Source of the DNA: a virus
Direction: 5' to 3' (one strand)
Virus record (IMG/VR): IMGVR_UViG_3300042937_001707
Coordinates: 14,985-78,984 of that record
Length of the DNA: 64,000 nt
Positions within the stretch are counted from its first letter, which is position 1. Each line of letters opens with the position of its first letter. Below the pieces are notes generated by a model. It was not told the DNA's origin, did no database searches, and saw only the letters and a list, made by a program, of their open reading frames with translations. The position numbers and the translations under genes were made by a program. Of this stretch, positions 18,881 to 48,021 are shown piece by piece.

Positions 18881-18881
18881 T

Positions 18882-19112
18882 ATGTTAGTAAAAACTGAGG
18901 AAGGAAACTTTATTAGGGATACAGAATCTATGGCGCTTCTTAATACTGATAGAAGCGCCAGAGAAGAATATTTCATGAAAGCGAAAATGTTACATATACA
19001 AAAGACAGAAATTGCTAATATAAATAATGAGATAGATTCGTTAAAAAACGACATAGGTGATATTAAATCTATGCTAATTCAATTAATATCGGATAAAACT
19101 AATGGCAAATAA
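18882..19112 (+). CDS. Small coiled-coil hypothetical protein following the VrlC-like gene
   Basis: 76 aa, IRDTESMALLNTD and an EIDSLKNDIGDIKSML heptad; GAGG SD. Confidence 0.75.
   Translation: MLVKTEEGNFIRDTESMALLNTDRSAREEYFMKAKMLHIQKTEIANINNEIDSLKNDIGDIKSMLIQLISDKTNGK
19019..19026 (+). promoter_or_regulatory. Possible T4-type late promoter (intragenic, upstream of the long fibre gene)
   Basis: TATAAATA about 75 nt before ATG 19102. Confidence 0.45.
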
Positions 19113-28796: not shown

Positions 28797-29534
28797 ATGT
28801 CGAATTCAAGAGCAATTTCAAAAATACCCTCTGGTCAATTATTTTCAAAATATAATGGGGCTAATAGTGGCGCATTATTGATGTTATCTGGAAATAACAC
28901 AATCGGAGGAACAACATATTTCGATTTATTAAAAGCAACAAATATTGCTCCAGGAACAACCGATCCAAACAAAACGGTTCGTTTAAATAGTACAGGAAGC
29001 ATCGAAATAATTGATAGCACCTATACTAATGTTATATTTACAATAACCAACAGCGGCAACATATCAAATAAAGGTACAATTACTCCGGGATCTTATACCG
29101 CAGGTCAAGTGATAAAAGATACTATGTTGGATAATAGTCAAGTTACTGTCGTTAGTACGACTATTGCAACGACAGGATCAACAGTGAATTTTATTACTTA
29201 TAATTATACTCCTGTTAGTTCATCGAGTTATTTGATCATTCACTATCATCTATCAAAATATCAACCACAAGGAACCACCGATGATAGTTGGTATTCGCAA
29301 TTATTAGTTGATAACACTGAAATTGCATACGCTTGGCAGATGGCTAATGATAATAATCAGGGTACAAGCGGTCGTTCGGGAGTATTATTCCCATTGACGG
29401 GTAGATACACAAATTCTAGCACATCAACAAAACAAATACAAGTTGGTGCTCGTAGAGACAGCGCCGATGATGGTATAATTATAGATAACTCTCCTACATC
29501 TATGTGGTTGCGTATTACAGAGATTGCAAGATGA
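28797..29534 (+). CDS. Putative fibre-tip/receptor-binding protein
   Basis: T/S-rich; GQVIK...YTPVSSSSYLIIHY...LRITEIA C-terminal domain typical of phage fibre tips. Confidence 0.5.
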   Translation: MSNSRAISKIPSGQLFSKYNGANSGALLMLSGNNTIGGTTYFDLLKATNIAPGTTDPNKTVRLNSTGSIEIIDSTYTNVIFTITNSGNISNKGTITPGSYTAGQVIKDTMLDNSQVTVVSTTIATTGSTVNFITYNYTPVSSSSYLIIHYHLSKYQPQGTTDDSWYSQLLVDNTEIAYAWQMANDNNQGTSGRSGVLFPLTGRYTNSSTSTKQIQVGARRDSADDGIIIDNSPTSMWLRITEIAR

Positions 29535-29565
29535 ATTTTCTTTGTTAATATTTTTTAAATCTTAG

Positions 29566-29573
29566 TATAAATA
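29566..29573 (+). promoter_or_regulatory. T4-type late promoter
   Basis: Intergenic TATAAATA. Confidence 0.8.
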
Positions 29574-29604
29574 CTAAATAAACCTCCGAGGATAGGGAAT
29601 CGGG

Positions 29605-32600: not shown

Positions 32601-32652
32601 GGATATAACGGCAGAAAGAAAAGATGTACCTTCATTAATAGTAGAGGAATAA
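29605..32652 (+). CDS. Tail fibre with TQNT coiled-coil repeats and putative C-terminal chaperone domain
   Basis: VENLNVDLLDG, DKLDGEHGSYY, VEDKNITL; ends KSFDIVHPS...LRYGSLESPYHGVRLTG...AERKDV. Confidence 0.75.
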   Translation: MSTKKFTTRHGIDANYQDIVSANNVSTNTLTALVSTGTPPLTVSSTTKVENLNVDLLDGYNTATSNAANTVVVRDANSFISLNGLYMNSSEGLKNISWNNTYSTYDMELLNGVTLQVGQESHIYGRATETIQNGKIVMFAGAQGDGLLLRLANTQVTGFEPRWIVGVATQTIPQNNWGYVTWFGKVNDVDTYNYSLGDILYLDNNNPGAFSNTRPTAPDYAITLAAVVRVSNSPSSNNGILMVRPDFGYELSEARDVKITNISANDVIIWSANNRWENKPQSNLDVGNSDKLDGEHGSYYTGYTDTANTNNLIYTNNVINSNVTLLQGINTTQNTNISNLTSWLSSNVSLIAGVDNTQNTNILSIQEVDNTQNTRLTVIEGVDVTQNTNISNLTSWLSSNVSLIAGVDNTQNTRLTVIEGVDVTQNTFTQAAFTHANAAFLSSNTKFSSSGGTITGDVVITGNVAVQGTTTTLDVDTIAVEDKNITLANVASPTNITADGGGITVRGTTDKTWNWINATSSWTSSENIDIASGKTYKINGIDVLTSTTISNIQGVDNTQNTRLTVIEGTDVTQNTNITNLTSWLSSNNTLQTNINATQNTSITAAFIQANSAYNQANTTNTNASNASNLTTGTIPGDRGVTAGSTTPSFIEYNGTTKTAGQFDGGSTAPTNTTRLNYDGNLYATTFYGEGTGLTGTASNLTANVANFEVITNATSGTYYPQLVSATSGTLAGYTNNAFAFDVANGRFGIATTTPTTKLHITESAGACVPILTLDNSSGWATGINFKVNYSGYTTSRIVYDFYGSEFAGLSHGMNYVSGRPSNSNHWFRDSANNIQLAILNSGNVVIGSNTTNYKFEVVGTAKANTLTLTANTASTNTTTGTLIVTGGVGISGALNATTKSFDIVHPSDPNKRLRYGSLESPYHGVRLTGKGKVINGKGVVTLPYYFRDLVHEEDVNIQLTNIKHGKVLWVEDINIKENRFTVGIDETTSIFTKEYEFFWDITAERKDVPSLIVEE
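30570..31420 (+). repeat. Repeated NTQNT(N/R) coiled-coil units
   Basis: An identical copy of about 75 bp at 30610-30684 and 30769-30843; further copies near 31260-31420. Confidence 0.85.
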
Positions 32653-32653
32653 T

Positions 32654-35023
32654 ATGGCAACTGCATATAATAGTAAACTTGTTACTGATAATTTGGTATT
32701 ATGTATAGATGCTGCTAATCCAAAAAGTTATCCAGGAACTGGAAATAATTGGTTTAATTTAGTAAAAGGCAATCGTTCAGAAACTATATCCGGAGAAACC
32801 ACTACAAATTTAATGTATTCTTCCGGAACTTTTGTTGGGTCTATTGGAACATTAACGGGTTCTTTTTCAGTGACAACTGTAGAGGCAAATAGTAAATATC
32901 GCGTTCAGTGTAACACTAGTGGGCTAATTAGAATATCAATTCCTAATGGTTTGTTAGTAAACAACCAAACATATACATTATCATACAAATATAAAGTCAT
33001 TTCTGGATTAACCAACTTTTTAATAAACGATTTTTGTGATGTTAATGTTGGCGACAGATTAATTATAGATACAGGCGATTATATTTTTGCTTCAGCAACG
33101 GCGAAAAGAATTACTTATGATTCGACATATAGATTTTTTGATACACCAACATTTCAAGTTGGTGATATTATAGATATTTGGGATATACAAGTAGAACAAA
33201 AAACGTATCCGACTGTTTTTGTAAATGGTATAAGATCCTCTGCAACATCAAATCAAATTTTAACTGGCGGAAATCAAAATTCAGATTTAATCAATGGTCC
33301 ATCATACCAATCTCAAGGGGTAATTGTGTTCGATGGCGTTGATGATTACGTTAAACAAAACCCTATGGCGTTTAAATCAGGAAGTGGGTGGACTCTATCG
33401 TGTTGGATAAGTCCTGTATTTAATTCCACTAAAATAGGAGCTTCTGTATTTTATGCTGTTGAAGGTAATTATCTAGGATACCCTTGTTCTGTCCCACTAA
33501 CAACTCAAACGGATACTACATATATAACACCTAAAAGCTCAATAGGTAGCACTTTTTATATTTGTTCTAACTATGTAACCAATTTTGTTGGTTCAGAAAG
33601 AATCCCTAAAATTTTTAAGATGAATTCTATTTTCACAGCGGTCGATCAAGGATTTAATACAGGTTCTGTAGGATACCTATCCACTCCAGTTCACATAACA
33701 GCATCTACATATTATTCTGGGAAAATATATGTATGCGAAAACCTTAGCCAATATAGTAAATATGGAAAAATAGGATTCAAACGATATAATTCTGATGGAT
33801 CGTTAGATACTGGTTTCGGAACATCTACTTCTGGATTTAATTTTTCTACGGCATTTTCCGCAGAAGACAGTTCAGGAAATATTTATGTTGTTGGCTCCTT
33901 TACTTCTTATAACGGAACCGCAGCAAACCGAATTATTAAATTAAACACTGACGGTTCAATAGATACTTCTTTTGTTTATGGTACTGGGTTTAATAATGTA
34001 GTAACAGCAATTTACATAGATCCAATTAATGGAGGCATATATGTTATAGGAAATTTTACTTCTTATAACGGAACCGCAGCAAACCGAATTATTAAATTAA
34101 CCTCTACTGGGTCGATAGATGCTTCTTTTGTTTATGGTACTGGGTTTAATGATCAAGTCCTTTGTATAGAGTTTGACGAAAACGGAGATTTATATGTTGG
34201 GGGAGGGTTCACTACATATAATGGAACGGCAGTAAATCGCATGGTTAAATTAACCTCTACTGGGTCGATAGATGCTTCTTTTGTTTATGGTACTGGGTTT
34301 AATGGTGTTGTTAGATCAATATCATACAGTTATGACTTTTCATGGTTATATGTTGGGGGAGCGTTTACTACATATAACGGAACCGCAGCAAACCGAATAA
34401 TTACATTAAACACTGACGGGTCAATAGAAACTTCTTTTGTTTATGGTACTGGGTTTGACGGTGCTGTGCTTTCTATATTAGCAGATAGTTCAGGTTTGTT
34501 ATATGTTGGTGGCTCATTCACTACATATCAAGGCAGTGCTGTAAGTAGATTCGTAGGATTAGACATATATGATGGGACTTTTGTAACAGACATATTTGGT
34601 CTTACTTCTGATTTTGAATCTTGTGTAAATCTATCTACAAATTTTTATAATATCAGATATTTAGATGGGTTTGTATTTGCGTGGGTTAACAAAACACCTG
34701 TAGACTTAACTATTATCGGAGCATCGCAAACAATTTTAACAGCCAATGAATTATATGACATTTTTGACGGGAATACCACTATAAATTTAGTGGAATCTAT
34801 GGATACTAATTCTACCTATAAAGCATATTTAAACGGACAATTAGTATGTGAAATTCCAAATGTAGAAAATTCTGGTATTCTTTTATATAATTTGTTTAAT
34901 GACATTTCAACGTCATCTAAATTTCAAGGGAAAGCTTCTAATATTTCTGTATACAGCAAAGCATTATCCGCCACAGAAATTCAACAAAACTTCAACGCTA
35001 CAAGGAGCAGATATGGAATATAA
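32654..35023 (+). CDS. LamG/concanavalin-like protein with inserted delta-60-type beta-propeller repeats
   Basis: LVLCIDAANPKSYPG N-terminus; FDGVDDY; repeats IYVVGSFTSYNGTAANRIIKLNTDGSIDTSF; C-terminal YSKALSATEIQQNFNATRSRYGI. Confidence 0.75.
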   Translation: MATAYNSKLVTDNLVLCIDAANPKSYPGTGNNWFNLVKGNRSETISGETTTNLMYSSGTFVGSIGTLTGSFSVTTVEANSKYRVQCNTSGLIRISIPNGLLVNNQTYTLSYKYKVISGLTNFLINDFCDVNVGDRLIIDTGDYIFASATAKRITYDSTYRFFDTPTFQVGDIIDIWDIQVEQKTYPTVFVNGIRSSATSNQILTGGNQNSDLINGPSYQSQGVIVFDGVDDYVKQNPMAFKSGSGWTLSCWISPVFNSTKIGASVFYAVEGNYLGYPCSVPLTTQTDTTYITPKSSIGSTFYICSNYVTNFVGSERIPKIFKMNSIFTAVDQGFNTGSVGYLSTPVHITASTYYSGKIYVCENLSQYSKYGKIGFKRYNSDGSLDTGFGTSTSGFNFSTAFSAEDSSGNIYVVGSFTSYNGTAANRIIKLNTDGSIDTSFVYGTGFNNVVTAIYIDPINGGIYVIGNFTSYNGTAANRIIKLTSTGSIDASFVYGTGFNDQVLCIEFDENGDLYVGGGFTTYNGTAVNRMVKLTSTGSIDASFVYGTGFNGVVRSISYSYDFSWLYVGGAFTTYNGTAANRIITLNTDGSIETSFVYGTGFDGAVLSILADSSGLLYVGGSFTTYQGSAVSRFVGLDIYDGTFVTDIFGLTSDFESCVNLSTNFYNIRYLDGFVFAWVNKTPVDLTIIGASQTILTANELYDIFDGNTTINLVESMDTNSTYKAYLNGQLVCEIPNVENSGILLYNLFNDISTSSKFQGKASNISVYSKALSATEIQQNFNATRSRYGI
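33880..34560 (+). repeat. About 52-aa delta-60-like tandem repeats
   Basis: Four copies of cttcttttgtttatggtactgggttt; acggaaccgcagcaaaccgaat is also repeated. Confidence 0.85.
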
Positions 35024-35267
35024 TGATAGAAATTTTATAATCTTTCCAACTTCGGAATTATCAAAAGTTGATTTTAGTCAAGTATTAGAAACTTCTGCCG
35101 AAACGGTTAGACGTTCTGTGGATGGTTCCAAAACGTTTGTTAAATGGGATGGAGAACAGCCAGAATTTGTTTCTACTTTGGAGAATACAGAAGGTCCGTA
35201 TACTTACGAAGAAATATTAGAAATATTAAATGGATTAGAATGGACTGCTCCAATGGAGGAAATGTAA
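35013..35267 (+). CDS. Small conserved hypothetical protein between the LamG genes
   Basis: Start moved to ATG 35013 (AAGGAG SD); VDFSQVLETSAETVRRSVDGSKTFVKW...YTYEEILEIL...W. Confidence 0.75.
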   Translation: MEYNDRNFIIFPTSELSKVDFSQVLETSAETVRRSVDGSKTFVKWDGEQPEFVSTLENTEGPYTYEEILEILNGLEWTAPMEEM

Positions 35268-36005
35268 GTGAGTTTGGGTCACGGAGCAAGTATTGTTACT
35301 AATGGATTAGTTTTATGTTTAGATGCTGCTAATCCAAAAAGTTATCCTGGATCAGGTGCTGTTTGGTATGATTTGAGTGGAAATGGTAATCACGCTTCTT
35401 TAGTAAATGGACCAGTTTATTCTACAGAAAATAATGGCAAATTTGTATTAGACGGAATAAATGATTATGTAGAAACGATTAATCCTCTAAATTTATCAAC
35501 AACCAATGCGGTAACAGTTTTATTTTCAGTAAAAGTATTATCCTATGGGACTTCTCCAAAAGTTCTATATGAATTAGGTCCAAATTTTAACAGTTATACC
35601 GATTGTTTTGTAGCATCATTTTCTGATAATTCTGTTGGAGCGAATTATGATATTTTTGCTAGTGTTAGAGGAAATGTTGGATATAATATAGGAGTATATT
35701 CTAAAACTTTATTAAACGATTCCAATTGGCATTCTAATATTATAATACACGACACTTCACAAACTTCCAAAGAAAATCTTATATACAGCAACGGTGTTAT
35801 AAAAGACGAAATATCTAACCCCCTTTCTGGATATGCTAATAATACTAATAATTTCGGTAACAGAAAATTTTATATAGGTTGTAGGGGAGGAGCTAGTTTG
35901 TTTGGCAATATTGAAATATCGAGTGTTATGGCGTATAACAGAGCATTATCCGCAGCAGAAATTCAACAAAATTTTAACGCTTCTCGCAATCGCTTCGGGA
36001 TATAA
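35268..36005 (+). CDS. LamG/concanavalin-like lectin protein
   Basis: LVLCLDAANPKSYPGSG..WYDLSGNGN, LDGINDY, YNRALSAAEIQQNFNA; paralogous to 32654..35023. Confidence 0.8.
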   Translation: MSLGHGASIVTNGLVLCLDAANPKSYPGSGAVWYDLSGNGNHASLVNGPVYSTENNGKFVLDGINDYVETINPLNLSTTNAVTVLFSVKVLSYGTSPKVLYELGPNFNSYTDCFVASFSDNSVGANYDIFASVRGNVGYNIGVYSKTLLNDSNWHSNIIIHDTSQTSKENLIYSNGVIKDEISNPLSGYANNTNNFGNRKFYIGCRGGASLFGNIEISSVMAYNRALSAAEIQQNFNASRNRFGI

Positions 36006-36008
36006 ATA
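36001..36008 (+). promoter_or_regulatory. T4-type late promoter heading the collagen/modifier operon
   Basis: TATAAATA overlapping the upstream stop codon. Confidence 0.8.
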
Positions 36009-36038
36009 GTTAAATAACAACTCCTTAGAGAATACCAA

Positions 36039-36659
36039 ATGGCATTAAACGAACAAAATATAGTAATTCAACCTAATGTTGGTATAGCAAATACTAACCC
36101 AAAAATTACGTTTTCCGCAGCAGACGCATCAACAAATGCTAAGAATATTGTTCTTAATGTATACCCAACTTCAAACGGAACACTTTCTTTTGAAGGTAAC
36201 GCCGGACAATTATTCTCTATCACAGACTCAATGTCTGGAACAATATTCTCTGTTAATGATATTTCTGGTATTCCTTCTATAGAAGTTTTAGACACTGGAT
36301 TAGTAAAACTTGCCCAATATTCTGGCGACGTTCAAATCGGACCTTCTACAGTTTTAATTTCGGAAAATTATACTACCACAACCACAAATCAAATTACACT
36401 AGACAGCTTTCCCGCAGCAACATATAGAACAGCAACTTATGAAGTGCAAATGACTTCATCTACAAATTATCATACAATAACACTAAAACTAATACATAAC
36501 GGCACAACAGTTTATCTCGCTCAATATGGAGAAATATTCACAAATGCTTCTCTAGGAACATTTGATGCTACAATTACTTCCGGTAATATGAATTTATTAT
36601 TTACTCCAACCAATGCTACTACCGTAGTAAAATTAACAAGACAACTAATCTTGGTATAA
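36039..36659 (+). CDS. Fibre adaptor/structural protein
   Basis: LSFEGNAGQLFSITDSMSGTIFSVNDISGIPSIEV; C-terminal domain paralogous to that of 27789..28793. Confidence 0.65.
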   Translation: MALNEQNIVIQPNVGIANTNPKITFSAADASTNAKNIVLNVYPTSNGTLSFEGNAGQLFSITDSMSGTIFSVNDISGIPSIEVLDTGLVKLAQYSGDVQIGPSTVLISENYTTTTTNQITLDSFPAATYRTATYEVQMTSSTNYHTITLKLIHNGTTVYLAQYGEIFTNASLGTFDATITSGNMNLLFTPTNATTVVKLTRQLILV

Positions 36660-36660
36660 A

Positions 36661-38349
36661 ATGGCAACAAATAAACCCTTTGAAATAAAAAACGGATTAA
36701 TTGTTGGGGATACTCTTGTCGCAAATTCAACTGGTCATTGGGTAGGTCCATCAACAAATATAACCGGAGATCAAGGATTTCAAGGAAATATTGGGATAAC
36801 TGGAAATGTTGGATTTACTGGAATAGCAGGATTCCAAGGTAGACAAGGAGTACAAGGTTCTACTGGTCCTCAAGGCGTACAAGGTGCTTTGGGTGCTACT
36901 GGTAATATTGGAGTTCAGGGTGCTATCGGAATAGCAGGATTTCAAGGTAGGCAGGGCGTTCAAGGTTCTACTGGTCCTCAAGGCGTACAAGGCGTGGTTG
37001 GTGCTACTGGAAATGCTGGAGTTCAGGGCGCTATCGGAATATCAGGATTTCAAGGTAGACAAGGAATACAAGGTTCTACTGGTCCTCAAGGCGTTCAGGG
37101 AGCAGTTGGTGCTACTGGAAATAGTGGAATAGCAGGATTCCAAGGCAGACAAGGGTTTCAAGGCACACAAGGTCCACAGGGACCACAAGGAGTTCAGGGA
37201 GCAGTTGGTGCTACTGGTAATGCTGGTGTGCAAGGTGCTATTGGAATAGCAGGATTTCAAGGTAGACAAGGAATACAAGGTTCTACTGGACCACAAGGAG
37301 CACAAGGCGCTGTAGGTGCTACTGGTAATGTTGGTGTGCAAGGTGCTATTGGAATAGCAGGATTTCAAGGCAGACAAGGGTTTCAAGGTTCTACTGGTCC
37401 ACAAGGAGCACAAGGCGCTGTAGGTGCTACTGGTAATGCTGGAATAGCAGGATTTCAAGGAAGACAAGGATTCCAAGGCGCACAAGGACCACAAGGACCA
37501 CAAGGCGTTCAAGGCGCTGTTGGTGCTACTGGTAATACTGGAGTTCAGGGTGCTATTGGAATAGCAGGATTCCAAGGTAGACAAGGAGTCCAAGGTCCAC
37601 AGGGACCACAAGGTGTACAAGGTGCTGTTGGCGCTACTGGACCGCAAGGAGTTCAAGGGACAGTTGGAATAGCAGGATTTCAAGGTAGACAAGGAGTCCA
37701 AGGTCCACAGGGACCACAAGGCGTACAGGGAGCAGTTGGCGCCACTGGTCCTCAAGGGGTTGCTGGAATAGCAGGATTCCAAGGCAGACAAGGATTCCAA
37801 GGCGCACAAGGTCCGCAAGGAGCACAAGGAGCACAAGGCGCTGTAGGTGCTACTGGTCCTCAAGGAGTTGCTGGAATAGCAGGATTCCAAGGCAGACAAG
37901 GATTCCAAGGAGCAAATTTAATAATTCCTGCCAATAATCTTAGTACATTAGGAGTAAATGCTGCACTTGGCGGAACTGGAGAAATACGAGCATCTGGAAA
38001 TATCATAGCAGCATACTCAGATCAAAGATTAAAGAAAAATATAAACAAAATTGAAAATTGTTTAGAAAAAGTATTAAGTATAAGTGGAATTTATTTTACT
38101 CAAAATAAGTTAGCAGAAAAGTTTGGATATAACGATTATAGTAAAAAAATAGGATTGATAGCACAGCAAATAAAACCTTTTGCTCCTGAAATAGTTAAAC
38201 CTGCTCCTTTTGATACGGATTCCGATGGAAATAGCATTTCTGGGGAAAATTACATAACAGTACAATATGAAAAATTAATTCCAATAATAGTAGAAGCTAT
38301 AAAAGAACAACAAAAGCAAATTAAAGAACTTTTAACATTAAGAAACTAA
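36661..38349 (+). CDS. Collagen-like fibre protein 1 with S74 chaperone
   Basis: 128 Gly-X-Y triplets (aa 36-419, nt 36766-37917); [10 protein letters not shown]...APFD...[14 protein letters not shown]. Confidence 0.92.
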
Positions 38350-38353
38350 TCAG

Positions 38354-40063
38354 ATGGCAGAACAATCTAAACTAATAATAAAAAATGGATTAGTTGTTGG
38401 AAATACTTCAGTTATTTCCAACAATTCTGTTTGGATTGCTTCTACAACGAACATAAAAGGTCCGCAAGGACCACAAGGATTTCAAGGCGTTCAAGGATTC
38501 CAAGGACCACAAGGAGCACAAGGACCACAAGGGTCTCAAGGAATTGCGGGAGTTACAGGACCACAAGGCATACAAGGGGTTGTTGGTAGACAAGGGTTCC
38601 AAGGTCCACAAGGATTTCAAGGAGCGCAAGGACCACAGGGAGCACAAGGTGCTGTCGGTGCTACTGGACCCCAAGGAGTTCAAGGCGCTGCAAGTTCTAT
38701 TGCAGGGTTCCAAGGTCCACAAGGGTTTCAAGGCGCTCAAGGTCCACAAGGTGCACAAGGTGCTGTCGGTGCTACTGGTCCACAAGGAGTTCAAGGAGCA
38801 ATCGGCGTAACAGGAGTCCAAGGAGTCCAAGGTCCACAGGGACCACAAGGTGCACAAGGTGCAGTTGGTGCTACTGGACCACATGGAGTTCAAGGAGCAG
38901 TTGGCATATCTGGATTCCAAGGTAGACAAGGAGTCCAAGGAGCGCAAGGACCACAGGGAGCACAAGGTGCTGTCGGTGCTACTGGACCCCAAGGAGTTCA
39001 AGGCGCTGCAAGTTCTATTGCAGGATTTCAAGGCAGACAAGGGTTTCAAGGCGCACAAGGTCCACAGGGCGCACAAGGAGCAGTTGGTATTACTGGTCCT
39101 CAAGGAGTTCAAGGAGCAATCGGCGTAACAGGAGTCCAAGGAGTCCAAGGTCCACAGGGACCACAAGGTGCACAAGGTGCAGTTGGCGTTACTGGACCAC
39201 AAGGAGTTCAAGGTGCTGCAAGTTCTATTGCAGGATTTCAAGGCAGACAAGGGTTTCAAGGCGCACAAGGTCCACAGGGCGCACAAGGAGCAGTTGGCGT
39301 TACTGGACCACAAGGAGTTCAAGGCGCTGCAAGTTCTATTGCAGGATTTCAAGGCAGACAAGGAGTCCAAGGTCCACAAGGTCCACAGGGCGCACAAGGA
39401 GCAGTTGGCGTTACTGGACCACAAGGAGTTCAAGGTGCTGCAAGTTCTATTGCAGGATTTCAAGGCAGACAAGGAGTCCAAGGTCCACAGGGACCACAAG
39501 GTGCACAAGGTGCAGTTGGCGTTACTGGACCACAAGGAGTTCAAGGAGCAGTTGGAATAGCAGGATTCCAAGGTAGACAAGGAGTCCAAGGTCCACAAGG
39601 TCCGCAGGGCGTTCAAGGGATATCTAATGTTTTGCAAACATCAGTAACTGCGTTAGGAGTTGGAACCCCAGCAGGACCAACAGGAGAAATAAGAGCAACC
39701 GGAAACATAACTTCGTATTATTCTGACATAAGGTTAAAAGATAATATAGAATCTATAAAAAATGCTAGTGAAAAATTATATCAATTAAATGGAATTTTTT
39801 ATAAACAAAATAAGTTTGCAGAAACCTTTGGATATAAAGATTATAGCAAACAAATAGGAGTTATAGCACAAGAAGTTCAAAAAATTATACCAGAAGCTGT
39901 TGCATTAGCACCATTTGATATTGATGAAAATCACAATAGCATCACAGGTTTAAATTTATTAACGGTTAATTATGAAAAATTAATTCCATTAATAATAGAA
40001 ACTATAAAAGAACAACAAAAAGAAATAGATTTATTAATAAAAGAAATAAAATATGGCAGCTAA
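38354..40063 (+). CDS. Collagen-like fibre protein 2 with S74 chaperone
   Basis: Gly-X-Y aa 36-424 (nt 38459-39625) with five GAASSIAG interruptions; [10 protein letters not shown]. Confidence 0.92.
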
Positions 40064-41735
40064 TAATAATTTCGTTGTAAAAAATGGCATATCTATAAAT
40101 CTAAATGAAATAATTTCATCAGAAGGCATTTGGACTGGTCCCGCTTCAAGCTATTCCGGATCACAAGGACCACAAGGAGCACAAGGACCACAAGGCGCTC
40201 AGGGTGCTGTGGGTGCTGCTGGTCCACAAGGAGTTCAAGGAGTAGAAGGATTCCAAGGTCCACAAGGATTTCAAGGCGCTCAAGGTCCACAAGGTCCACA
40301 GGGAGCACAAGGCGCAGTTGGTGCTACTGGTCCACAAGGCATACAAGGGGTGGCAGGGTTCCAAGGTCCACAAGGATTCCAAGGCGCTCAAGGTCCACAA
40401 GGTCCACAAGGCGCTCAAGGCGCAGTTGGTGCTATTGGACCACAGGGCATTCAAGGGGTAGCAGGATTTCAAGGTCCACAAGGATTTCAAGGCGCTCAAG
40501 GCGCTCAGGGTGCTGTCGGTGCTACTGGTCCTCAAGGAGTACAAGGTGCTGCAAGTTCGATTGCGGGGTTCCAAGGTCCACAAGGATTCCAAGGCGCTCA
40601 AGGTCAACAAGGACCACAAGGCGCTCAAGGCGCAGTTGGTGCTATTGGACCACAGGGCATTCAAGGGGTAGCAGGATTTCAAGGTCCACAAGGATTTCAA
40701 GGAGCGCAAGGTCCACAAGGTCCACAAGGCGCTCAAGGGGCAGTTGGCGTTACCGGACCACAAGGAGTTCAAGGGGTGGCAGGGTTCCAAGGTCCACAAG
40801 GATTTCAAGGTGCTCAAGGCGCTCAGGGTGCTGTCGGTGCTACTGGTCCTCAAGGAGTACAAGGTGCTGCAAGTTCGATTGCGGGGTTCCAAGGTAGACA
40901 AGGATTTCAAGGCGCTCAAGGTCCACAAGGACCACAAGGCGCTCAAGGCGCTGTAGGTGCTACTGGTCCTCAAGGAGTTGCTGGAATAGCAGGATTCCAA
41001 GGTAGACAAGGATTCCAAGGCGCTCAAGGTCCACAGGGCGCTCAAGGAGCACAAGGCGCTGTAGGTGCTACTGGTCCTCAAGGAGTTGCTGGAATAGCAG
41101 GATTCCAAGGTAGGCAAGGATTCCAAGGCGCTCAAGGTCCACAGGGAGCACAGGGGGCAGTTGGTGTTACTGGACCGCAAGGAGTTCAAGGAGCGGCTAG
41201 TTCAATTGCAGGATTTCAAGGCAGACAAGGAGTTCAAGGTCCACAGGGTCCACAGGGAGCACAGGGGGCAGTTGGTGCTACTGGTCCTCAAGGAGTACAA
41301 GGAGCGGCTAGCAATGTGGTAACTGAAGTTACAGCACTAGGAGTTAATACTATAGCAGGAACAACAGGAGAAATAAGAGCAACTGGACAAATTACTGCAT
41401 ATTATTCTGATAAAAGATTAAAACAAGTTTTAGGAAATGTTGACAATTGTTTAGAAAAGATAAGTAAAATACATGGTGTATATTACGAACAAAACGAATT
41501 AGCTAATTCATTTGGATATAAAGACTCTTCAAGACAAATAGGATTTATAGCACAAGAAATACAAGAAGTGCTACCAGAAGCAGTAAAAATTGCCCCTTTT
41601 GATTCTAATAAATATGGACATAGTATTTCTGGAGAAAAATATTTAACCGTACTATACTCAAAAATAGTACCGTTATTAATAGAAGCATTAAAAGAACAGA
41701 AAATACAGATAGATGAACTAAAAACAAAAAATTGA
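40053..41735 (+). CDS. Collagen-like fibre protein 3 with S74 chaperone
   Basis: Gly-X-Y aa 36-419 (nt 40158-41309) with three GAASSIAG interruptions; [10 protein letters not shown]. Confidence 0.92.
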
Positions 41736-41743
41736 GGAATATT

Positions 41744-42316
41744 ATGAAAGGTGAATGGTGTTATTTTAAATCATATTTTGATAAAGATACTTGCGAAAAA
41801 ATAATCAGAGATGTTCAATCCATTCCATCACAAGATGCTCTTGTTGGTAATATCGATGCTTTCGCTGATTATAAAAATAGAAGAAGTAAAATAAAATTTA
41901 TTCATAGTTCAAATTGGAGATTTGCGTATATATTTGATGCATTATGGAAAGCAGCAATAAGTGCAAATAATGATTTTTTTGACATACACATTACTAGATT
42001 AAATTTCATTCAATTCGCAGAATATAGTCACGAAGACCAAGGAGAATATAAAAACCATCACGACGTTTTTTGGTTAAACAATGATCCCGTTTATCATAGA
42101 AAACTTTCTTGTGTAATCCAACTATCAGACTCTACTGAATATGAAGGTGGAGATTTTGAGTTAGTAGATGTATCAACATATCCTGATGCTTCTGAGATTA
42201 GGCAACAAGGATCGACTATATTTTTTCCTTCATTTTTTACACATAGAGCAAATCCAGTAATAAGAGGAACTAGATATAGTATTGCTGCATGGTTTGAAGG
42301 TCCGAAATGGAGATAA
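41744..42316 (+). CDS. 2OG-Fe(II) oxygenase (prolyl-hydroxylase-like)
   Basis: HHD...RKLSCVIQLS..EYEGGDF...FPSFFTHRANPVIRGTRYSIAAW: HxD...H iron triad and RxS 2OG-binding motif. Start at ATG 41744 after GAGG. Confidence 0.88.
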   Translation: MKGEWCYFKSYFDKDTCEKIIRDVQSIPSQDALVGNIDAFADYKNRRSKIKFIHSSNWRFAYIFDALWKAAISANNDFFDIHITRLNFIQFAEYSHEDQGEYKNHHDVFWLNNDPVYHRKLSCVIQLSDSTEYEGGDFELVDVSTYPDASEIRQQGSTIFFPSFFTHRANPVIRGTRYSIAAWFEGPKWR

Positions 42317-42317
42317 T

Positions 42318-43040
42318 ATGCACCCAACCATACATTATAATGAACCGTTTGATTACTACATTATAGATGATTTTTTAGAACCATCTATCGCAAAAAAGAT
42401 ATCAGAAGAATTTATCCCATTTGAATCCACACATTGGTTCGATTATAATAATCCATTAGAAATAAAAAAAACTTTAAACAATTGGTATCATTTTCCAGAA
42501 ACCACTTATAAGTTTTTTTCTTATCTAAATTCAAAAGAATTCGTAGAAATAATTCAAAATATAACAAAAACAAATAATCTATATACTGATATCGGATTAC
42601 ATGGTGCTGGCTGGCACATTCATGGTAACGGTGGGAAATTGAATGTACATCTAGATTATTCAATTCACCCAAAATTAAAATTACAAAGAAAATATAATTT
42701 TATAATATATCTATCACAGGAATGGAATCCAAAATGGGGAGGTAATTTAGAATTTTGGTCACACGATTTTCTAAACAAAAAACCAAAAGAAAAAATTGCC
42801 CAAGTGGATTGTATATTCAATAGAGCAGTAATTTTTGACACTACCAAAAATTCTTGGCATGGGTTTAACGATCCCATAACTTGCCCAAATAATACATATA
42901 GAAAAAGTATTGCTTGTTATTACCTAACTGACCCAGAAGAAATCACAGAGGAACGATACAGAGCATTATATTCAGCATCAAAATCTCAAGAGAATGATAG
43001 AAACATTGAACAATTGATTAAAAATAGAAGTAAACTATGA
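42318..43040 (+). CDS. 2OG-Fe(II) oxygenase (Tpa1/Ofd1-like prolyl hydroxylase family)
   Basis: LHGAGWH..GGKLNVHLD...WGGNLEFW...FNRAVIFDT..SWHG...RKSIA. Start at 42318 after GGAG. Confidence 0.85.
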   Translation: MHPTIHYNEPFDYYIIDDFLEPSIAKKISEEFIPFESTHWFDYNNPLEIKKTLNNWYHFPETTYKFFSYLNSKEFVEIIQNITKTNNLYTDIGLHGAGWHIHGNGGKLNVHLDYSIHPKLKLQRKYNFIIYLSQEWNPKWGGNLEFWSHDFLNKKPKEKIAQVDCIFNRAVIFDTTKNSWHGFNDPITCPNNTYRKSIACYYLTDPEEITEERYRALYSASKSQENDRNIEQLIKNRSKL

Positions 43041-44755
43041 ATAAAAAATGTAAAATTGTTATGATTACCATGTTTAAGAATGAAGCAAGATCCATAGAAA
43101 GAATGCTAAATTCTTGTTTACCTTTTGTAGATTACTATGTTCTTCAGAACAACGGATCGACAGACGGTTCCGATCAAATAGTAAAAGATTTCTTGATTAA
43201 TAACGAGTTATCCGGAACTTTATATGATGTAGAAGAAGGTTGGGTTGGATTTGGATGGAATAGAGATCATTTAATTCAAACATGTCAAGATATTGATCAT
43301 GGATGTGATTGGATTTTAAAGATGGATTGCGACGAAGTTCTAGAAATTGACAGCAATTTTAATTGGGAGTTGTTAAGTGATAAATCTACCCAAGCATTTC
43401 ATATTCCTGCAGTAAGTGGAACTTGTGTATATTATAGAGCATGGATGTGGAACGCAAACCTTCCTTGGAGATTTAATCACGATACTTGCCACGAAACAAT
43501 ATATTGCGAAATTCCGGAAATAGATAAAAACTTTGTGTGTAAAGACTTACCAAAATCTTTTAGACAAGTAGGATATAACGAAGGACAAAGTTGGTCGGTT
43601 CCTACAAAATTTATTTCAGACTCTTTAATCTTAGAAGAAAAAATGATTAAAGAAAACACAATACATTCCGATATATACCATTTTTGGTATATAGGCAAAA
43701 GTTATGCAGATGCTTATCCATCAACAGCATTTCCTCTGGGAAAAACGCAGCAGAAAGAATATGCAAGAAGATGTATTTACTATTTTACTGAATATTTAAA
43801 TTTAATACATGATTTTGAAAATACGAAAAAAGCAAAATTTATAGACGAAACTTCTTACATGTCACTAATTTTAATGGCAGAGGCATATATATTCTTAAAT
43901 AAAGAAGACAACGCAATAGAGTGTTATATTCTTGCAGAATCTTTTGCTCCAAAAAGAAATGATCATCTTTTTGGATTAGCAAGAATTTATAAACGTTTGA
44001 AGCAATATGAAGAAATGTTACAAATCACTTCTGTAATGATTAACCCAGAAAGAAAAAACCCTTTCCCAGAATATTGTAATTTTATAGATTCTTCTTTATA
44101 TATCAATGAAGAAAATAATGTCGTAGAAGAACTTCATAATTTTGCATTATCACATAATACAAAAGAACAACATATTCCATTACCATTTTATATAAATTTA
44201 AATAAAGATAAAAATTTATTTGTAGTTGATAATTTTTATACCAATCCAGATGATGTCAGAGATTTTGCATTAAATTTTGTTGAATATAAAGAAGATTTAA
44301 ATTGGTATAAAGGGTTAAGATCTACAGTAACATATAGACCAGATGGTATAAAAGAAGCATTTGAAGAAATAATAGGAAAAAAGATTTATAATTTCGAAGA
44401 ACACGGATTTAATGGAGTTTTTCAGATAACAAGCGCAAAAGATCCCCAAGTATATCATTATGATGCACAAAAATGGGCAGCAATGATATATTTAACCCCA
44501 AATTCTCCGCTAGAAAGCGGAACAAGAACCCATAGATCCAAATTAAACGGAACAAAACACGCATCAGAACCAAACGTTGATTTTGCATTTAATGGCAATT
44601 TCTATGACAGCACTAAATTTGAAATTATTGATAATGTGGGGAATATATACAATAGATTAGTAATAATGGATGCTCAAAATATCCATTCTGCTGGTCCATA
44701 TTTTGGCTCTGCTATTCATGATAGTAGATTAACTCATTTATTTTTCTTCGATTAA
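43037..44755 (+). CDS. Glycosyltransferase family 2 + TPR-like helices + C-terminal 2OG-oxygenase-like domain
   Basis: MITMFKNEARSIERML, GSTDGS, MDCDE (DxD); helical middle; C-terminal VVDNFY..PD.VR...HYD..WAAMIYLTP...NRLVI...HSA. Confidence 0.8.
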   Translation: MNKKCKIVMITMFKNEARSIERMLNSCLPFVDYYVLQNNGSTDGSDQIVKDFLINNELSGTLYDVEEGWVGFGWNRDHLIQTCQDIDHGCDWILKMDCDEVLEIDSNFNWELLSDKSTQAFHIPAVSGTCVYYRAWMWNANLPWRFNHDTCHETIYCEIPEIDKNFVCKDLPKSFRQVGYNEGQSWSVPTKFISDSLILEEKMIKENTIHSDIYHFWYIGKSYADAYPSTAFPLGKTQQKEYARRCIYYFTEYLNLIHDFENTKKAKFIDETSYMSLILMAEAYIFLNKEDNAIECYILAESFAPKRNDHLFGLARIYKRLKQYEEMLQITSVMINPERKNPFPEYCNFIDSSLYINEENNVVEELHNFALSHNTKEQHIPLPFYINLNKDKNLFVVDNFYTNPDDVRDFALNFVEYKEDLNWYKGLRSTVTYRPDGIKEAFEEIIGKKIYNFEEHGFNGVFQITSAKDPQVYHYDAQKWAAMIYLTPNSPLESGTRTHRSKLNGTKHASEPNVDFAFNGNFYDSTKFEIIDNVGNIYNRLVIMDAQNIHSAGPYFGSAIHDSRLTHLFFFD

Positions 44756-44757
44756 TT

Positions 44758-46014
44758 ATGAAATTTAGCATTATAACCCCAGAACATAATAAAAATAATC
44801 CGTATTTGATGGAATTGTTCGAATCCATAGAAAACCAAACTTATGAAAATTGGGAATGGGTAATATTATTAAATAATGGTTGCGAATTCGAAGACCTTCC
44901 AGAACAAATTTTATACCATGATAAAGTAAATGTATACAAACTAGAAGAAACCAATTCAAATATTGGATTTATAAAAAATAAAGCATTTCATCTTGGGTCC
45001 GGAGATGTTTTAGTAGAAGTTGATCATGATGATATATTAATAAAAAATTGTTTAGAAAAATTATACGAAGTATATCAAGATGAAAACATGGGATTCGTAT
45101 ATAGCGATAATGCCGTCTTACATATGACCGATGAATTTTCCCCATATGACGCAAATCAAGGGTGGGAATATTCTATTTATAATTGGAAAGGTCGAGATTT
45201 AATTTCTATGAAAAGTTTCGAACCATCTTCTCAAAGTTTAGGTTATATTTGGTATGCTCCAGATCATGTCAGATCTTGGAGGTCTAATGTCTATAAAGAA
45301 ATTGGAGGACACAATCCAGAATTATCAGTATGCGATGATCATGAATTATGTATTAGAACATATCTACACACTAAAATGAAAAGAATTCCGGAAGTTCTTT
45401 ATATCTATAGAATTACCGGGGAAAATACTTGGTTGGAAAGAAATCAAGAAATACAACAAAAAACAATAGAATTATTCAATAATTATATTCAACTTTTAGC
45501 AGAAAAAGATTGCGAAGAAAAAGGATTATTGAAAATTGATTTGGGAGGGGGTTTAAATCCGTATAAAGATTATAAAACCGTTGATATCACAGAATCTGCG
45601 GATTTTCAATACGATTTAAATGAAGGGATACCGTTACCAGATAATAGCGTAGGAGTTATCAATGCCAGTCATATATTAGAACATTTAAAAGATCCTATCA
45701 AATCTATGAGCGAAATTCATAGGGTGTTATGTCATGGTGGATGGGCTTTTATAGAAATTCCAAGCACGGATGGAAGAGGAGCATTCCAAGACCCCACACA
45801 TGTAAGTTTCTGGAACGAAAATAGTTTTTTATATTATACCGATAAATATCTTGCTAATTTTATAAATAATAAATATATAAGATTTCAAGAATATTATAAA
45901 CAAACATATTTTCCAAATGAATGGTTACAACAAATAAATGTTTGTGTTACTTCCGCATATTTAACAGTTATTAAAGACGATTCTATCCGATACCCCGGAT
46001 TTTTAAAAATATAA
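44758..46014 (+). CDS. Glycosyltransferase family 2 fused to class I SAM-dependent methyltransferase
   Basis: FSIITP...SIENQTYENWEWVI, VDHDD, DDHEL; C-terminal IDLGGG, ASHILEHL, EIHRVLCHGG. Confidence 0.85.
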   Translation: MKFSIITPEHNKNNPYLMELFESIENQTYENWEWVILLNNGCEFEDLPEQILYHDKVNVYKLEETNSNIGFIKNKAFHLGSGDVLVEVDHDDILIKNCLEKLYEVYQDENMGFVYSDNAVLHMTDEFSPYDANQGWEYSIYNWKGRDLISMKSFEPSSQSLGYIWYAPDHVRSWRSNVYKEIGGHNPELSVCDDHELCIRTYLHTKMKRIPEVLYIYRITGENTWLERNQEIQQKTIELFNNYIQLLAEKDCEEKGLLKIDLGGGLNPYKDYKTVDITESADFQYDLNEGIPLPDNSVGVINASHILEHLKDPIKSMSEIHRVLCHGGWAFIEIPSTDGRGAFQDPTHVSFWNENSFLYYTDKYLANFINNKYIRFQEYYKQTYFPNEWLQQINVCVTSAYLTVIKDDSIRYPGFLKI

Positions 46015-46017
46015 ATA
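46010..46017 (+). promoter_or_regulatory. T4-type late promoter
   Basis: TATAAATA overlapping the stop codon of the GT/MTase gene. Confidence 0.75.
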
Positions 46018-46045
46018 CTAATATAAACAACTTATAGGTATCAAT

Positions 46046-46495
46046 ATGCCAAAATACAATCAATCAAACGTTTCAGGAGAATTGTGGAGAAGATCTCCTC
46101 AAATAATTTGTTATAATAATTATAATCAAAATCCAGTAATACTTTTTGATGAAGAAGATATAATAGTATTGAATAATGGAGAATTTGCATCCAATAGAAT
46201 CCAGTCAAAATTACATCAAGAATTTAATTCTGATAACGCTAATACTGCATTTGAGTTGAGAAACCCGGAAACAGAAGAATATATAGGAACATTTGCAACA
46301 TACAAAGATTTATACGTATTAATGTATTCTTTATATTTTCATTTGGCAAAGGAGAGAGACAAAGGACCACAACCATATCCAAGTTGGATATGGAACGACC
46401 AAACTAATTCGTGGGATGCTCCTATCCCAAAACCGGAAGATGGACAAGAATATTATTGGGATGAAAGTTCTCAAGAATGGGTTATCGTTGCATAA
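46046..46495 (+). CDS. Hypothetical fibre-associated protein
   Basis: Late promoter upstream; C-terminal PQPYPSWIWN...WDAPIPKP...YYWDE...W motif. Confidence 0.65.
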   Translation: MPKYNQSNVSGELWRRSPQIICYNNYNQNPVILFDEEDIIVLNNGEFASNRIQSKLHQEFNSDNANTAFELRNPETEEYIGTFATYKDLYVLMYSLYFHLAKERDKGPQPYPSWIWNDQTNSWDAPIPKPEDGQEYYWDESSQEWVIVA

Positions 46496-46507
46496 GGAGA
46501 ACTCATC

Positions 46508-47461
46508 ATGACAATGGTAGCGAGTGGATATATTGAATTAGGTCCAAACGCAGCAGCAGCTACACCAAACACCTCAATTGGAACAGAGTTAAAAAGAACT
46601 GCATATGCGTCAACAAACTTAACAGAAACAGATTGTAGATATTTAGGTGGAATCAACACAGGACAAATAGGGTTTTCTAATTTTTATTCAAAATATGTGA
46701 TACAAGGACAAACTTTTGCAACTAGCACCAGTGGAAATTGGACAGTGCCAACAGGAGTTTATTATGTCAGCATATTATGTATTGGCGCTGGCGGCGGAGG
46801 TGCAGCGCTTTCTGGAAGCACCACTTATTCTGGAGGCGGAGGTGCATTATCATATACAAATAACATACCAGTAACACCAGGAGAAGTTTTATCATATGTT
46901 GCAGCACCTATAACCGCAAGACAAGCGCAAGGAGGAACGTCTTCTGTTTCTAGGGGGGCAACTGTTCTTGTAAGTGCTGCTGGAGGAAGCCAATATGCAA
47001 CAGGAGGTCAAGCTTCTGCTGGAGTTGGATCTGTTAAATATTCTGGAGGAAATGGGAATTCTTATACAGGTATAGGATCTGCTGGCGGTGGAGGTGCAGC
47101 CGGATATTCTGGAGTTGGAGGAACCGGAGGAAACCCATCCACACAAGCGGGAACTGCTGGATCTGGAGGAGGTGGCGGAGGTGGCGGAGGGTCGTCTTCA
47201 TTCAGTACTGGTGGAGGCGGAGGAGGAGTAGGGAATATCGGAGAAGGACCAAGTGGTGCTGCTAGTGGGACAAACGGAGGAGCAGGAAAGGGCGGTTCCT
47301 ATGGAACAGATGGAGTTGGTGGATTTCTTTTAGGTGGTGCTGGTGGAGGATATGGTGGAGGCGGTGGAAGTGATACAACAGGAACCGGTGGTGCTGGTCT
47401 GGTAAGGTTTATGTGGGGAGTAAACAGATATTACCCATCAACAAATACTGGAGTATTATAA
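46508..47461 (+). CDS. Glycine-rich adhesin-like protein (gp38-like polyglycine architecture)
   Basis: N-terminal ...IGFSNFYSK; WTVPTGV...IGAGGGG; many poly-Gly runs. Confidence 0.65.
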   Translation: MTMVASGYIELGPNAAAATPNTSIGTELKRTAYASTNLTETDCRYLGGINTGQIGFSNFYSKYVIQGQTFATSTSGNWTVPTGVYYVSILCIGAGGGGAALSGSTTYSGGGGALSYTNNIPVTPGEVLSYVAAPITARQAQGGTSSVSRGATVLVSAAGGSQYATGGQASAGVGSVKYSGGNGNSYTGIGSAGGGGAAGYSGVGGTGGNPSTQAGTAGSGGGGGGGGGSSSFSTGGGGGGVGNIGEGPSGAASGTNGGAGKGGSYGTDGVGGFLLGGAGGGYGGGGGSDTTGTGGAGLVRFMWGVNRYYPSTNTGVL

Positions 47462-47602
47462 ATATTAATTAAAAAGAAGAATCTCCAAAATATTTACTAC
47501 AACCTTTTATAAACAATTCTGCTGGTTTAATAGAACTATTAGAATCAGACCCCCCTAATAAATTAATAGAATAACTTCTAAATTTCCTCCCTATCCTCGT
47601 TT

Positions 47603-47610
47603 TATAAATA
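47603..47610 (+). promoter_or_regulatory. T4-type late promoter inside an inverted repeat
   Basis: TATAAATA between arms 47588-47599 and 47625-47636; another copy at 47457. Confidence 0.75.
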
Positions 47611-47642
47611 ATAGTATAATTAACCGAGGATAGGGAATCGGA

Positions 47643-47711
47643 ATGTCAACTAAAAATTTTATCACTAAGCATGGTATAGATGTCAATTATAAGGTGTGTA
47701 TCGATGATTAA
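47643..47711 (+). pseudogene. 22-codon remnant or mini-ORF paralogous to the 5' end of fibre gene 29605
   Basis: MSTKNFITKHGIDVNYKVCIDD* versus MSTKKFTTRHGIDANY (12/16 identical), with the same leader ccgaggatagggaatcgg. Confidence 0.6.
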
Positions 47712-48021
47712 ATACTCATATAAAATAACAAAATTTAACATAAATCCAGATTCTAAACAACTAACTTCTGTTGAGTGGTGGTATGTCGGTAAAGAAAACG
47801 ATTGTAAATATGAAATTTATAACGTAACGCAATTAGACGTCAAAGGGAAAAAGTTTATTCCCCTAGAAAATTTACAAGAAAAAGAAGTAATTAAATTCAT
47901 TGAAAGTTCTTTAGACAAAGAATATATTAAATCAATGAAAGAAGTTATTACAATGGAAATCGATAAACAAAAAACTCCAGAAACAGTATCAATAACACCA
48001 CCTTGGATAGAAAATGTCTAA
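47704..48021 (+). CDS. Hypothetical protein
   Basis: Probable start MIKYSYKI at 47704, overlapping the mini-ORF stop; FIPLENLQEKEVIKFIE...PPW. Confidence 0.65.
   Translation: MIKYSYKITKFNINPDSKQLTSVEWWYVGKENDCKYEIYNVTQLDVKGKKFIPLENLQEKEVIKFIESSLDKEYIKSMKEVITMEIDKQKTPETVSITPPWIENV

Follow-up and report, generated by a model that had tools for sequence, protein, structure and literature searches.

Three collagen-like fiber genes and a set of candidate fiber-modifying enzymes in a predicted late transcription unit of a freshwater T4-like phage

In animal collagen, maturation involves hydroxylation of proline at the Y position of the Gly-X-Y (GXY) triplets and hydroxylation and glycosylation of lysine at the same position; in Skp1, glycans linked to hydroxyproline (Hyp) are built by a prolyl 4-hydroxylase (P4H) and then by soluble glycosyltransferases (GTs). 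Giant viruses are the only viruses for which an encoded modification of collagen is established; mimivirus L230, for instance, is a GT-hydroxylase fusion acting on viral collagen (PMC9614988). A GT-GT-methyltransferase fusion, A064R of PBCV-1, finishes and O-methylates a virion glycan (PMC9614988). In BclA of Bacillus anthracis, Thr-linked oligosaccharides end in a 2-O-methylated sugar (PMC6222408), and glycosylation of Thr turns (Gly-Pro-Thr)10 from a coil into a triple helix (PMC11923368). Collagen/S74 fibers are ordinary in phages, and genomes of cyanophages and pelagiphages are well known to carry 2-oxoglutarate (2OG) oxygenases and GTs whose presence is unexplained (PMC9301287, PMC7029224); no literature linking these enzymes to phage collagen was found. 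Here, we describe a window of 64,000 nucleotides (the whole stretch of DNA analyzed) from a 79-kb IMG/VR viral record that is ~47% complete (IMGVR_UViG_3300042937_001707, positions 14,985 to 78,984), in which three collagen/S74 genes are followed by four enzyme genes. On balance, we favor the reading that at least part of this enzyme set modifies the collagen fibers, the block then being a late fiber-decoration cassette with chemistry like that of BclA, Riftia cuticle collagen, and Skp1.

The eight genes between the late promoters at 36001 and 46010 appear to constitute one tightly packed T4-type late transcription unit. The T4-type late promoter motif TATAAATA lies at 36001..36008 on the + strand, 31 nt 5' of the first ATG (36039), and again at 46010..46017 (+ strand), where it overlaps the stop codon of the last enzyme gene, GT_MT, and starts the following unit (orf149). 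All long open reading frames (ORFs) in the 36- to 46-kb region are on the + strand. As the initial annotation had described, the genes downstream of the 36001 promoter abut or overlap, the seven junctions being +1, +4, -11, +8, +1, -4, and +2 nt once the starts of the small oxygenase genes OG1 and OG2 are corrected. Its claim that no terminator precedes 46010 agrees with the lack of any terminator-like site on the + strand within 36 to 46 kb, and its claim that no intergenic promoter precedes 46010 stands; one extra copy of TATAAATA, at 45861, is intragenic, within GT_MT. The window holds 19 copies of the motif, 18 on the + strand and 1 on the - strand, and most of them occupy the short intervals that precede genes; sigma-70-like promoter sites were not enriched (53 observed versus 47 expected). 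Gene domains were assigned with Pfam and PHROGs, and the collagen, PF13640, and GT2 matches in the 79-kb record fall in these cassette genes only.

The three fiber genes, colA (36661..38349), colB (38354..40063), and colC (40053..41735), all on the + strand, encode paralogous chains of 560 to 569 residues. Each matches Collagen (PF01391; E values, 1e-53 to 1e-62) and, above the cutoff, Peptidase_S74 (PF13884; E values, 1e-9 to 3e-14), so the collagen/S74 assignment made initially holds for all three. Each chain has a 35-residue N-terminal anchor, with an xxKNG motif common to all, and ~143 C-terminal residues. There are 128 uninterrupted GXY triplets in colA, 123 in colB with five SSIA interruptions, and 124 in colC with three. 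The S74 match spans residues 453 to 512, 457 to 516, and 452 to 512 of colA, colB, and colC, respectively, and starts in every case at an S-D-x-R-L-K motif (SDQRLK, SDIRLK, and SDKRLK), which we take to be the self-cleavage motif of the Peptidase_S74 family. The S74 domain is thus probably a self-cleaving C-terminal trimerization chaperone, and because the cleavage motif is present in all three chains, the likening of S74 to collagen C-propeptides in the initial annotation is reasonable. The eight identical four-residue SSIA interruptions of colB and colC, which have no counterpart in colA, break the GXY register and may serve as hinges or as sites of modification.

The parallel with animal collagen maturation that had also been drawn did not survive examination of the triplets. 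Among the 375 triplets of the three chains, Pro never occurs at Y and Lys occurs nowhere in the collagen regions; therefore, there is no substrate for 4-hydroxylation of Y-Pro or for Lys hydroxylation and hydroxylysine (Hyl) glycosylation, and the canonical animal chemistry (4-Hyp at Y, Hyl-glycan) was ruled out. Pro is found at X only, as GPQ, in 17 to 32 copies per chain. The pattern extends broadly to the collagens of related phages (8,691 triplets from 42 nonredundant loci), which have Gln at 57%, Thr at 15%, Pro at 4.5%, and Lys at 0.3% of Y positions, with Pro at 21% of X positions. To judge from these compositions, X-position Pro (GPQ) and Y-position Thr/Ser would be the feasible targets. 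In the collagen-like helices of BclA and Riftia cuticle collagen, too, Pro occurs at X and Thr at Y, and annelid cuticle collagen and BclA provide precedent for Thr O-glycans at Y. Furthermore, the BclA glycan needs a GT and methyltransferase pair such as that in the phage cassette. The phage differs in that Gln dominates Y (~70% of triplets) and Thr takes only 8 to 18 of ~125 Y positions per chain (18 in colA, 12 in colB, and 8 in colC), in that no sugar-nucleotide biosynthesis genes accompany the cassette, and in that its enzymes, as far as tested, are not homologs of known BclA glycosylation genes.

The four enzymes were placed by profile searches of solved structures, and family alignments of 35 to 51 homologs from related contigs showed that the catalytic motifs of all four are invariant. 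Like mimivirus L230 and LH3/PLOD3, the phage has an N-terminal GT-A domain and a C-terminal 2OG oxygenase on one chain, and like mimivirus, it also encodes collagen-like proteins. This chain is a fusion of 572 residues (43037..44755, + strand), matched in Pfam by GT2, TPR, and DUF6445, with the GT2 domain at residues ~6 to 180, a TPR-like helical region at ~190 to 376, and the DUF6445 2OG-oxygenase domain at ~390 to 572; its invariant motifs are D97-x-D99 in GT2 and H474-x-D476...H550...R564 in DUF6445. The best profile match of the GT2 part was the flagellin O-GlcNAc transferase GmaR (2e-6), and a TPR profile matched as well. When an AlphaFold model of the whole fusion (predicted local distance difference test [pLDDT], 90.5) was searched with Foldseek, the SunS/ThuS peptide S-glycosyltransferases came first (E value, 5e-15; TM-score by target, 0.53), followed by AspH (TPR plus oxygenase), full-length LH3 (E value, 2e-8), P3H1, and the teichoic-acid GTs TarS/TarP. 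The DUF6445 domain modeled alone (pLDDT, 91) is a double-stranded beta-helix oxygenase whose nearest neighbors were OGFOD1 (Z score, 14.8) and the EF-Tu prolyl hydroxylase (13.5), then Tpa1 and PHDs; small-molecule oxygenases (~12), L230 (11.1), and LH3 (10.5) were more distant. The model therefore predicts a 2OG oxygenase with a fold closest to those of protein prolyl hydroxylases, and the "2OG-like" domain that the initial annotation had placed at the end of a GT2-TPR fusion can be read as such an enzyme with an intact HxD...H...R motif.

In comparison with L230 and LH3, a Lys-to-Hyl-to-Glc route is impossible on Lys-free phage collagens, the DUF6445 domain is nearer to the OGFOD1/PHD type (Z scores, 13 to 15) than to lysyl hydroxylases (10.5 to 11), the linker is a TPR module rather than the LH3 accessory domain, and the virus is a bacteriophage. 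SunS/ThuS and GmaR are soluble cytoplasmic GT2 enzymes with a TPR-like domain that glycosylate peptides or proteins, a function for which the phage fusion is a candidate by fold; none of them has a C-terminal oxygenase, however, and their identity to the fusion is 12 to 15%. P3H1 and AspH share the TPR-plus-oxygenase arrangement. The DUF6445 subfamily is nearly absent from 185,579 cellular genomes, occurring only on one 2.3-kb contig of a metagenome-assembled genome, and thus appears to be essentially restricted to phages.

The last enzyme, GT_MT (418 residues; 44758..46014, + strand), matches GT2 and Methyltransf_11 in Pfam, as expected from its initial description as a GT2-methyltransferase fusion. 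It combines a GT2 domain (D89-x-D91) with a class I S-adenosylmethionine (SAM) methyltransferase domain (residues ~255 to 350) bearing a DxGGG loop, and both the D-x-D motif and the SAM loop are invariant in the family alignment. GT2 enzymes belong to the inverting-type mechanism class, and the profile matches of GT_MT were chondroitin synthase, TarS, GalT1, and SpsA. By description, the protein can be likened to PBCV-1 A064R, in which a GT and a class I SAM methyltransferase are fused for the making of a virion protein glycan (PMC9614988); A064R differs in that its GTs are of another family, its domains are of another number, its substrates are capsid protein N-glycans, and the virus that encodes it infects eukaryotes.

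The two small oxygenases, OG1 (190 residues; 41744..42316, + strand; P4H/PKHD family) and OG2 (240 residues; 42318..43040, + strand; OGFOD1-like), both match PF13640. Their initial identification as 2OG-Fe(II) oxygenases was upheld and their starts were corrected: family alignments and the DNA place the start of OG1 at ATG 41744, after GAGGA, and that of OG2 at ATG 42318, upstream TTG codons not being starts. The HxD...H...R motif of OG1 is invariant in 35 homologs, and the HxD...H...RxS motif of OG2 is invariant in 46. In profile searches, OG1 matched PKHD/PiuC (6e-11) above the PBCV-1 collagen P4H vCPH (3e-6) and the algal Cr-P4H (1e-5), and it also matched human P4H and P3H1; no known substrate was found in the PiuC/PKHD literature. 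OG2 matched the ribosomal prolyl hydroxylase OGFOD1 (6e-12) and P4H/PHD enzymes, with the Skp1 hydroxylase PhyA among the matches. OG1 shares its superfamily and catalytic motif with the collagen prolyl hydroxylases, which include animal C-P4H, P3H1, PBCV-1 vCPH, and the Bacillus anthracis P4H, and C-P4H has a TPR-type peptide-binding domain, of which the TPR module of the fusion is reminiscent. The X-Pro-Gly substrate that defines C-P4H is absent in the phage, in which the X-Pro of GPQ is instead a P3H-type or Riftia-type position.

Taken together, the profile and structure searches put three oxygenase domains in the protein prolyl-hydroxylase branch and the GT2-TPR part among peptide GT-like enzymes. 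No hydrophobic stretch in the cassette enzymes reaches transmembrane level, and membrane-bound glycan enzymes were set aside on this ground. The cassette thus encodes three prolyl-hydroxylase-type domains, two GT2 domains, one TPR module of the peptide-binding type, and one SAM methyltransferase, all apparently soluble and active. AlkB- or TET-like modification of DNA or RNA was set aside as well, since the three oxygenase domains match protein prolyl hydroxylases best and the genes are late.

The association of the enzymes with collagen extends across phage genomes. A search of IMG/VR with both fusion proteins yielded 141 loci, 85 of them nonredundant. The commonest order was collagen/S74 (one to three genes), OG1, OG2, GT2-TPR-DUF6445, GT2-methyltransferase, gp13, and gp14, and collagen remains a neighbor of the enzymes in at least five orders, including those with collagen 3' of the enzymes, the enzymes between two collagens, or the enzymes permuted. 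Collagen runs were present in 25 of the 29 nonredundant enzyme loci with at least 6 kb of upstream sequence. When 50 nonredundant loci were anchored on S74 instead and an enzyme was counted as present at an E value of <1e-20, enzymes were present in 13 of 17 S74 loci with collagen and in none of 33 without it (Fisher's test, 7e-9); two of these 33 loci showed weak OG1-like matches only. A third search, anchored on gp13, samples relatives regardless of content: among 19 nonredundant loci with at least 5.6 kb upstream, 14 had neither collagen nor enzymes, 3 had collagen only, 1 had OG1 only, and 1 had a free DUF6445 gene only. Collagen was thus found in 25 of 29 enzyme-anchored loci versus 3 of 18 gp13-anchored relatives without the GT set (P = 3e-6). 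The co-occurrence that the initial annotation had put up for checking is therefore present beyond chance in aquatic T4-like contigs. Two cultured Synechococcus phages provide independent cases: DSL-LC02 has a DUF6445 homolog, a mannosyltransferase, and an FkbM methyltransferase between fiber genes with GTQ/GTT collagen, and in S-CAM9, a tail fiber gene whose collagen segment is of the GPK/GEK/GPT type is directly followed by an OG1-like gene pair.

Several features point to protein substrates, namely, the late timing, the soluble enzymes of protein-modifying types, the TPR module, the phage-restricted DUF6445 domain, and the repeated linkage to collagen; among such substrates, the collagen chains are the leading candidate. 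Expression late in infection suits a role on virion proteins, not one on DNA or in the early takeover of the host. In the scheme that we consider, the three paralogous chains would trimerize from their C termini by means of the self-cleaving S74 chaperone domains. Since the collagen helix rises 0.29 nm per residue, the resulting rods would be ~110 nm long (~384 residues x 0.29 nm). Before or during assembly, the four soluble cytoplasmic enzymes made from the same transcript would modify the chains: OG1, and perhaps OG2 and the DUF6445 domain, would hydroxylate peptidyl Pro at X (GPQ); the GT2-TPR module would grip the unfolded chain and add a first sugar to Y-Thr/Ser or to new Hyp; and the GT2-methyltransferase would add a second sugar and then O-methylate it. 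The end product would be a fiber coated with glycans, which may add stability or protection or tune the fiber for recognition of the host. That these steps form a self-contained, non-animal pathway, in which one GT2-TPR-prolyl-hydroxylase enzyme, aided by one or two free hydroxylases and a GT-methyltransferase, places hydroxyls on X-Pro and decorates Hyp and/or Thr of the Gln-rich fibers with methylated O-glycans, is a tentative proposal to which we give rather less than even weight. Of the pathway envisaged initially, in which the phage folds, hydroxylates, and glycosylates its own collagen, the late unit, the intact enzymes, and the co-occurrence stood; the animal-type chemistry did not.

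Several observations weigh against collagen as the substrate. The co-occurrence statistics are uncorrected for shared ancestry and mix two ascertainment schemes, and they therefore constitute association, not proof of function. Five records (L069, L073, L134, L051, and L061; fragments of 12 to 62 kb) have the enzymes and no collagen, and in two others (L143 and L145), an RCC1-repeat protein stands 5' of the enzymes instead of collagen. The GT_MT homolog of S-CRM01 lies 50 kb from the collagen genes. In the complete genome of the cyanophage Sf-FS3, a DUF6445 homolog sits in a sugar-biosynthesis island, with no collagen genome-wide. Three collagen loci of related phages lack the enzymes, so the fibers do not require them. 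Pro-free collagens (L119, L123, L125, and L029) still keep OG2 and both GT fusions, and collagen Pro is therefore not a universal target of OG2 or the DUF6445 domain. OG1-type oxygenases are very common in cyanophages outside fiber regions, and homologs of OG1 occur in 321 phage records, many of them outside fiber regions and often by uvsW or in non-structural regions, which is in line with the initial caveat that 2OG oxygenases are common near fiber genes in T4-like phages and could act on other substrates.

OG1 presence does track the Pro content of the adjacent collagen (median, 0.30 versus 0.04 Pro per triplet; Mann-Whitney P = 1.4e-4, uncorrected for ancestry). On the GT_MT tree, however, only six changes in OG1 are independent, and significance is not reached (sign test, P = ~0.38). 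For OG2, presence was not associated with any of nine composition features. Furthermore, a Pro-rich collagen without OG1 (L157) and OG1 beside Pro-poor, Lys-rich GDK collagens (L168 and L173) are counterexamples, and these too count against the favored reading. The assignment of OG1 as a collagen prolyl hydroxylase from this correlation, which loses significance after relatedness is considered and has counterexamples, is accordingly retained as a lead only. In L168 (L168:9647-10950) and L173 (L173:10001-10900), the OG1 homolog (E value, ~1e-53) directly follows the S74 fiber gene, and the collagens are of the G-D-K/G-x-T type, with Lys at ~40% of Y and almost no Pro; the Lys at Y is at the classical lysyl-hydroxylase position, adjoining a P4H-family enzyme.

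One alternative is that the enzymes act on virion proteins other than collagen, for example, the upstream noncollagen fibers, the neck, or the capsid, collagen being adjacent only as a fellow resident of a hypervariable island before gp13. The closest gp13 relative, L248, lacks the whole stretch of ~28.8 to 48.0 kb (window positions 28797 to 48013, ~19 kb), which includes fiber genes, collagens, enzymes, orf149, orf317, and orf113; the cassette is therefore part of a larger hypervariable fiber island. The loci in which an RCC1-repeat protein replaces collagen and the retention of oxygenase domains beside Pro-free collagens are in line with this alternative, and mycobacteriophage GTs glycosylate capsid and tail-tube proteins (Freeman et al. 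2023, as cited in PMC12801897). However, collagen adjacency outlasts several rearrangements and recurs in the independent cases of DSL-LC02 and S-CAM9, the enzymes never accompany collagen-free S74 fibers, and no alternative conserved partner gene was seen among the loci. We regard this alternative as unlikely.

A similarly low probability attaches to the proposal that the GTs and the methyltransferase remodel host envelope glycans (O-antigen, S-layer, or pilin) and thereby block superinfection or aid release. This is how the literature usually reads GTs in cyano- and pelagimyophage host-recognition clusters, and those of myophages are routinely ascribed to modification of the host O-antigen (PMC7029224). 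Polysaccharide pathways typically include GT2 enzymes and class I methyltransferases, as the matches of GT_MT to chondroitin synthase, TarS, and SpsA illustrate. The Sf-FS3 homolog lies within an island of sugar-nucleotide and fucosyltransferase genes, and L134 adds a sulfotransferase, an APS-kinase-like protein, and an FkbM methyltransferase. Against these points, the unit is flanked by late promoters only and is embedded among structural genes, its enzymes have no membrane segments, one GT is closest to peptide glycosyltransferases and is fused to a TPR module and a prolyl-hydroxylase-type domain, and the DUF6445 subfamily is almost confined to phages. The enlarged enzyme island of L134 (L134:204-8284), which precedes gp13 in a 30-kb record without collagen, also has a 2OG-FeII_Oxy_5 protein, a GT2, and two further methyltransferases, and its content hints at sulfated and methylated glycans.

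Finally, OG1 and OG2 might be general cyanophage-type 2OG enzymes that act on host proteins (ribosomal proteins or translation factors, as OGFOD1 and PPHD do), nucleic acids, or small molecules and have nothing to do with the fibers, only the GT fusions, if anything, acting on virion proteins; the wide distribution of OG1, the proximity of OG2 and DUF6445 to OGFOD1 and the EF-Tu hydroxylase, and an Ofd1-like oxygenase with no known role in S-SCSM2R virion preparations (PMC12801897) agree with this idea, which we nevertheless consider very improbable, since OG1 stands directly 3' of a collagen/S74 gene in several different orders, including loci without GTs, and correlates (uncorrected) with collagen Pro content, and neither AlkB nor TET is the nearest relative of any of the three oxygenase domains.

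P4H-type 2OG oxygenases are among the commonest unexplained auxiliary metabolic genes in aquatic viromes, and a survey described the viral use of prolyl 4-hydroxylase as still cryptic (PMC9301287). The locus described here offers a concrete, testable alternative, with enzymes of protein-modifying types and collagen-like fiber genes in one late operon. What would be new is a bacteriophage version of viral collagen modification, in which the enzyme, of three domains, is a different one and the target residues necessarily differ as well. If collagen is indeed the substrate, posttranslational modification of collagen would extend from animals and giant viruses to bacteriophages, and the chains would be the first posttranslationally processed collagen described in a bacteriophage. 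The three-domain architecture of the GT2-TPR-hydroxylase would be new among enzymes and convergent with that of LH3 and L230, the fiber glycans would add a further layer of phage host-range and stability determinants, and the "P4H/2OG oxygenase auxiliary metabolic genes" of lakes and oceans would be, at least in part, virion-maturation genes. The phage is not rare: 20 studies contributed a total of 20 lake/freshwater metagenome runs with near-identical DNA, no RNA run being listed among the public runs, and >650 sequence clusters make up the family of the fusion protein.

The record belongs to a freshwater T4-like myovirus. Its portal protein is 47 to 49% identical to that of any cultured phage, cyanomyoviruses being nearest, and there is therefore no annotated close relative; a megablast search of the enzyme region against cultured phages gave no match. 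IMG/VR labels the whole record "provirus," a label that looks doubtful in view of the window, where nothing but T4-type structural genes and late promoters is seen. Most copies of TATAAATA lie 25 to 45 nt before start codons (for example, those at 19019, 27192, 29566, 52019, 53834, 55733, 56349, 61100, and 62473) and together provide a map of late promoters across the structural region.

The first gene of the unit (36039..36659, + strand), called an adaptor gene in the initial annotation, encodes a 206-residue, phage-only protein with a candidate role as a fiber-associated protein. It has a weak PHROG match to baseplate wedge (E value, 1e-4), the Mtd_N region of tropism-determinant proteins is similar to its Atlas model, and its C-terminal 120 residues are 39% identical to the C terminus of the ORF at 27789 to 28793 (E value, 4e-24). 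Both genes lie just 5' of fiber genes whose products start with an xxK(N/H)G motif, and the shared C-terminal domain together with these fibers suggests a repeated connector/fiber arrangement.

The variable fiber island occupies the T4 gp12/wac position and lies just 5' of gp13 and gp14, the neck genes. In L248 (L248:5101-5987), the DNA runs from a homolog of the ORF at 27789 to 28793 almost directly to gp13. In the nearest gp13 relatives (L234-L237:5613-8213), two homologs of orf149 (window positions 46046 to 46495) lie ~2 kb apart, 5' of gp13, in place of the collagen/enzyme block. Upstream of the island, at 12113 to 24969 and in the same orientation, two very large ORFs (2,255 and 1,955 codons) presumably encode giant structural or fiber proteins.

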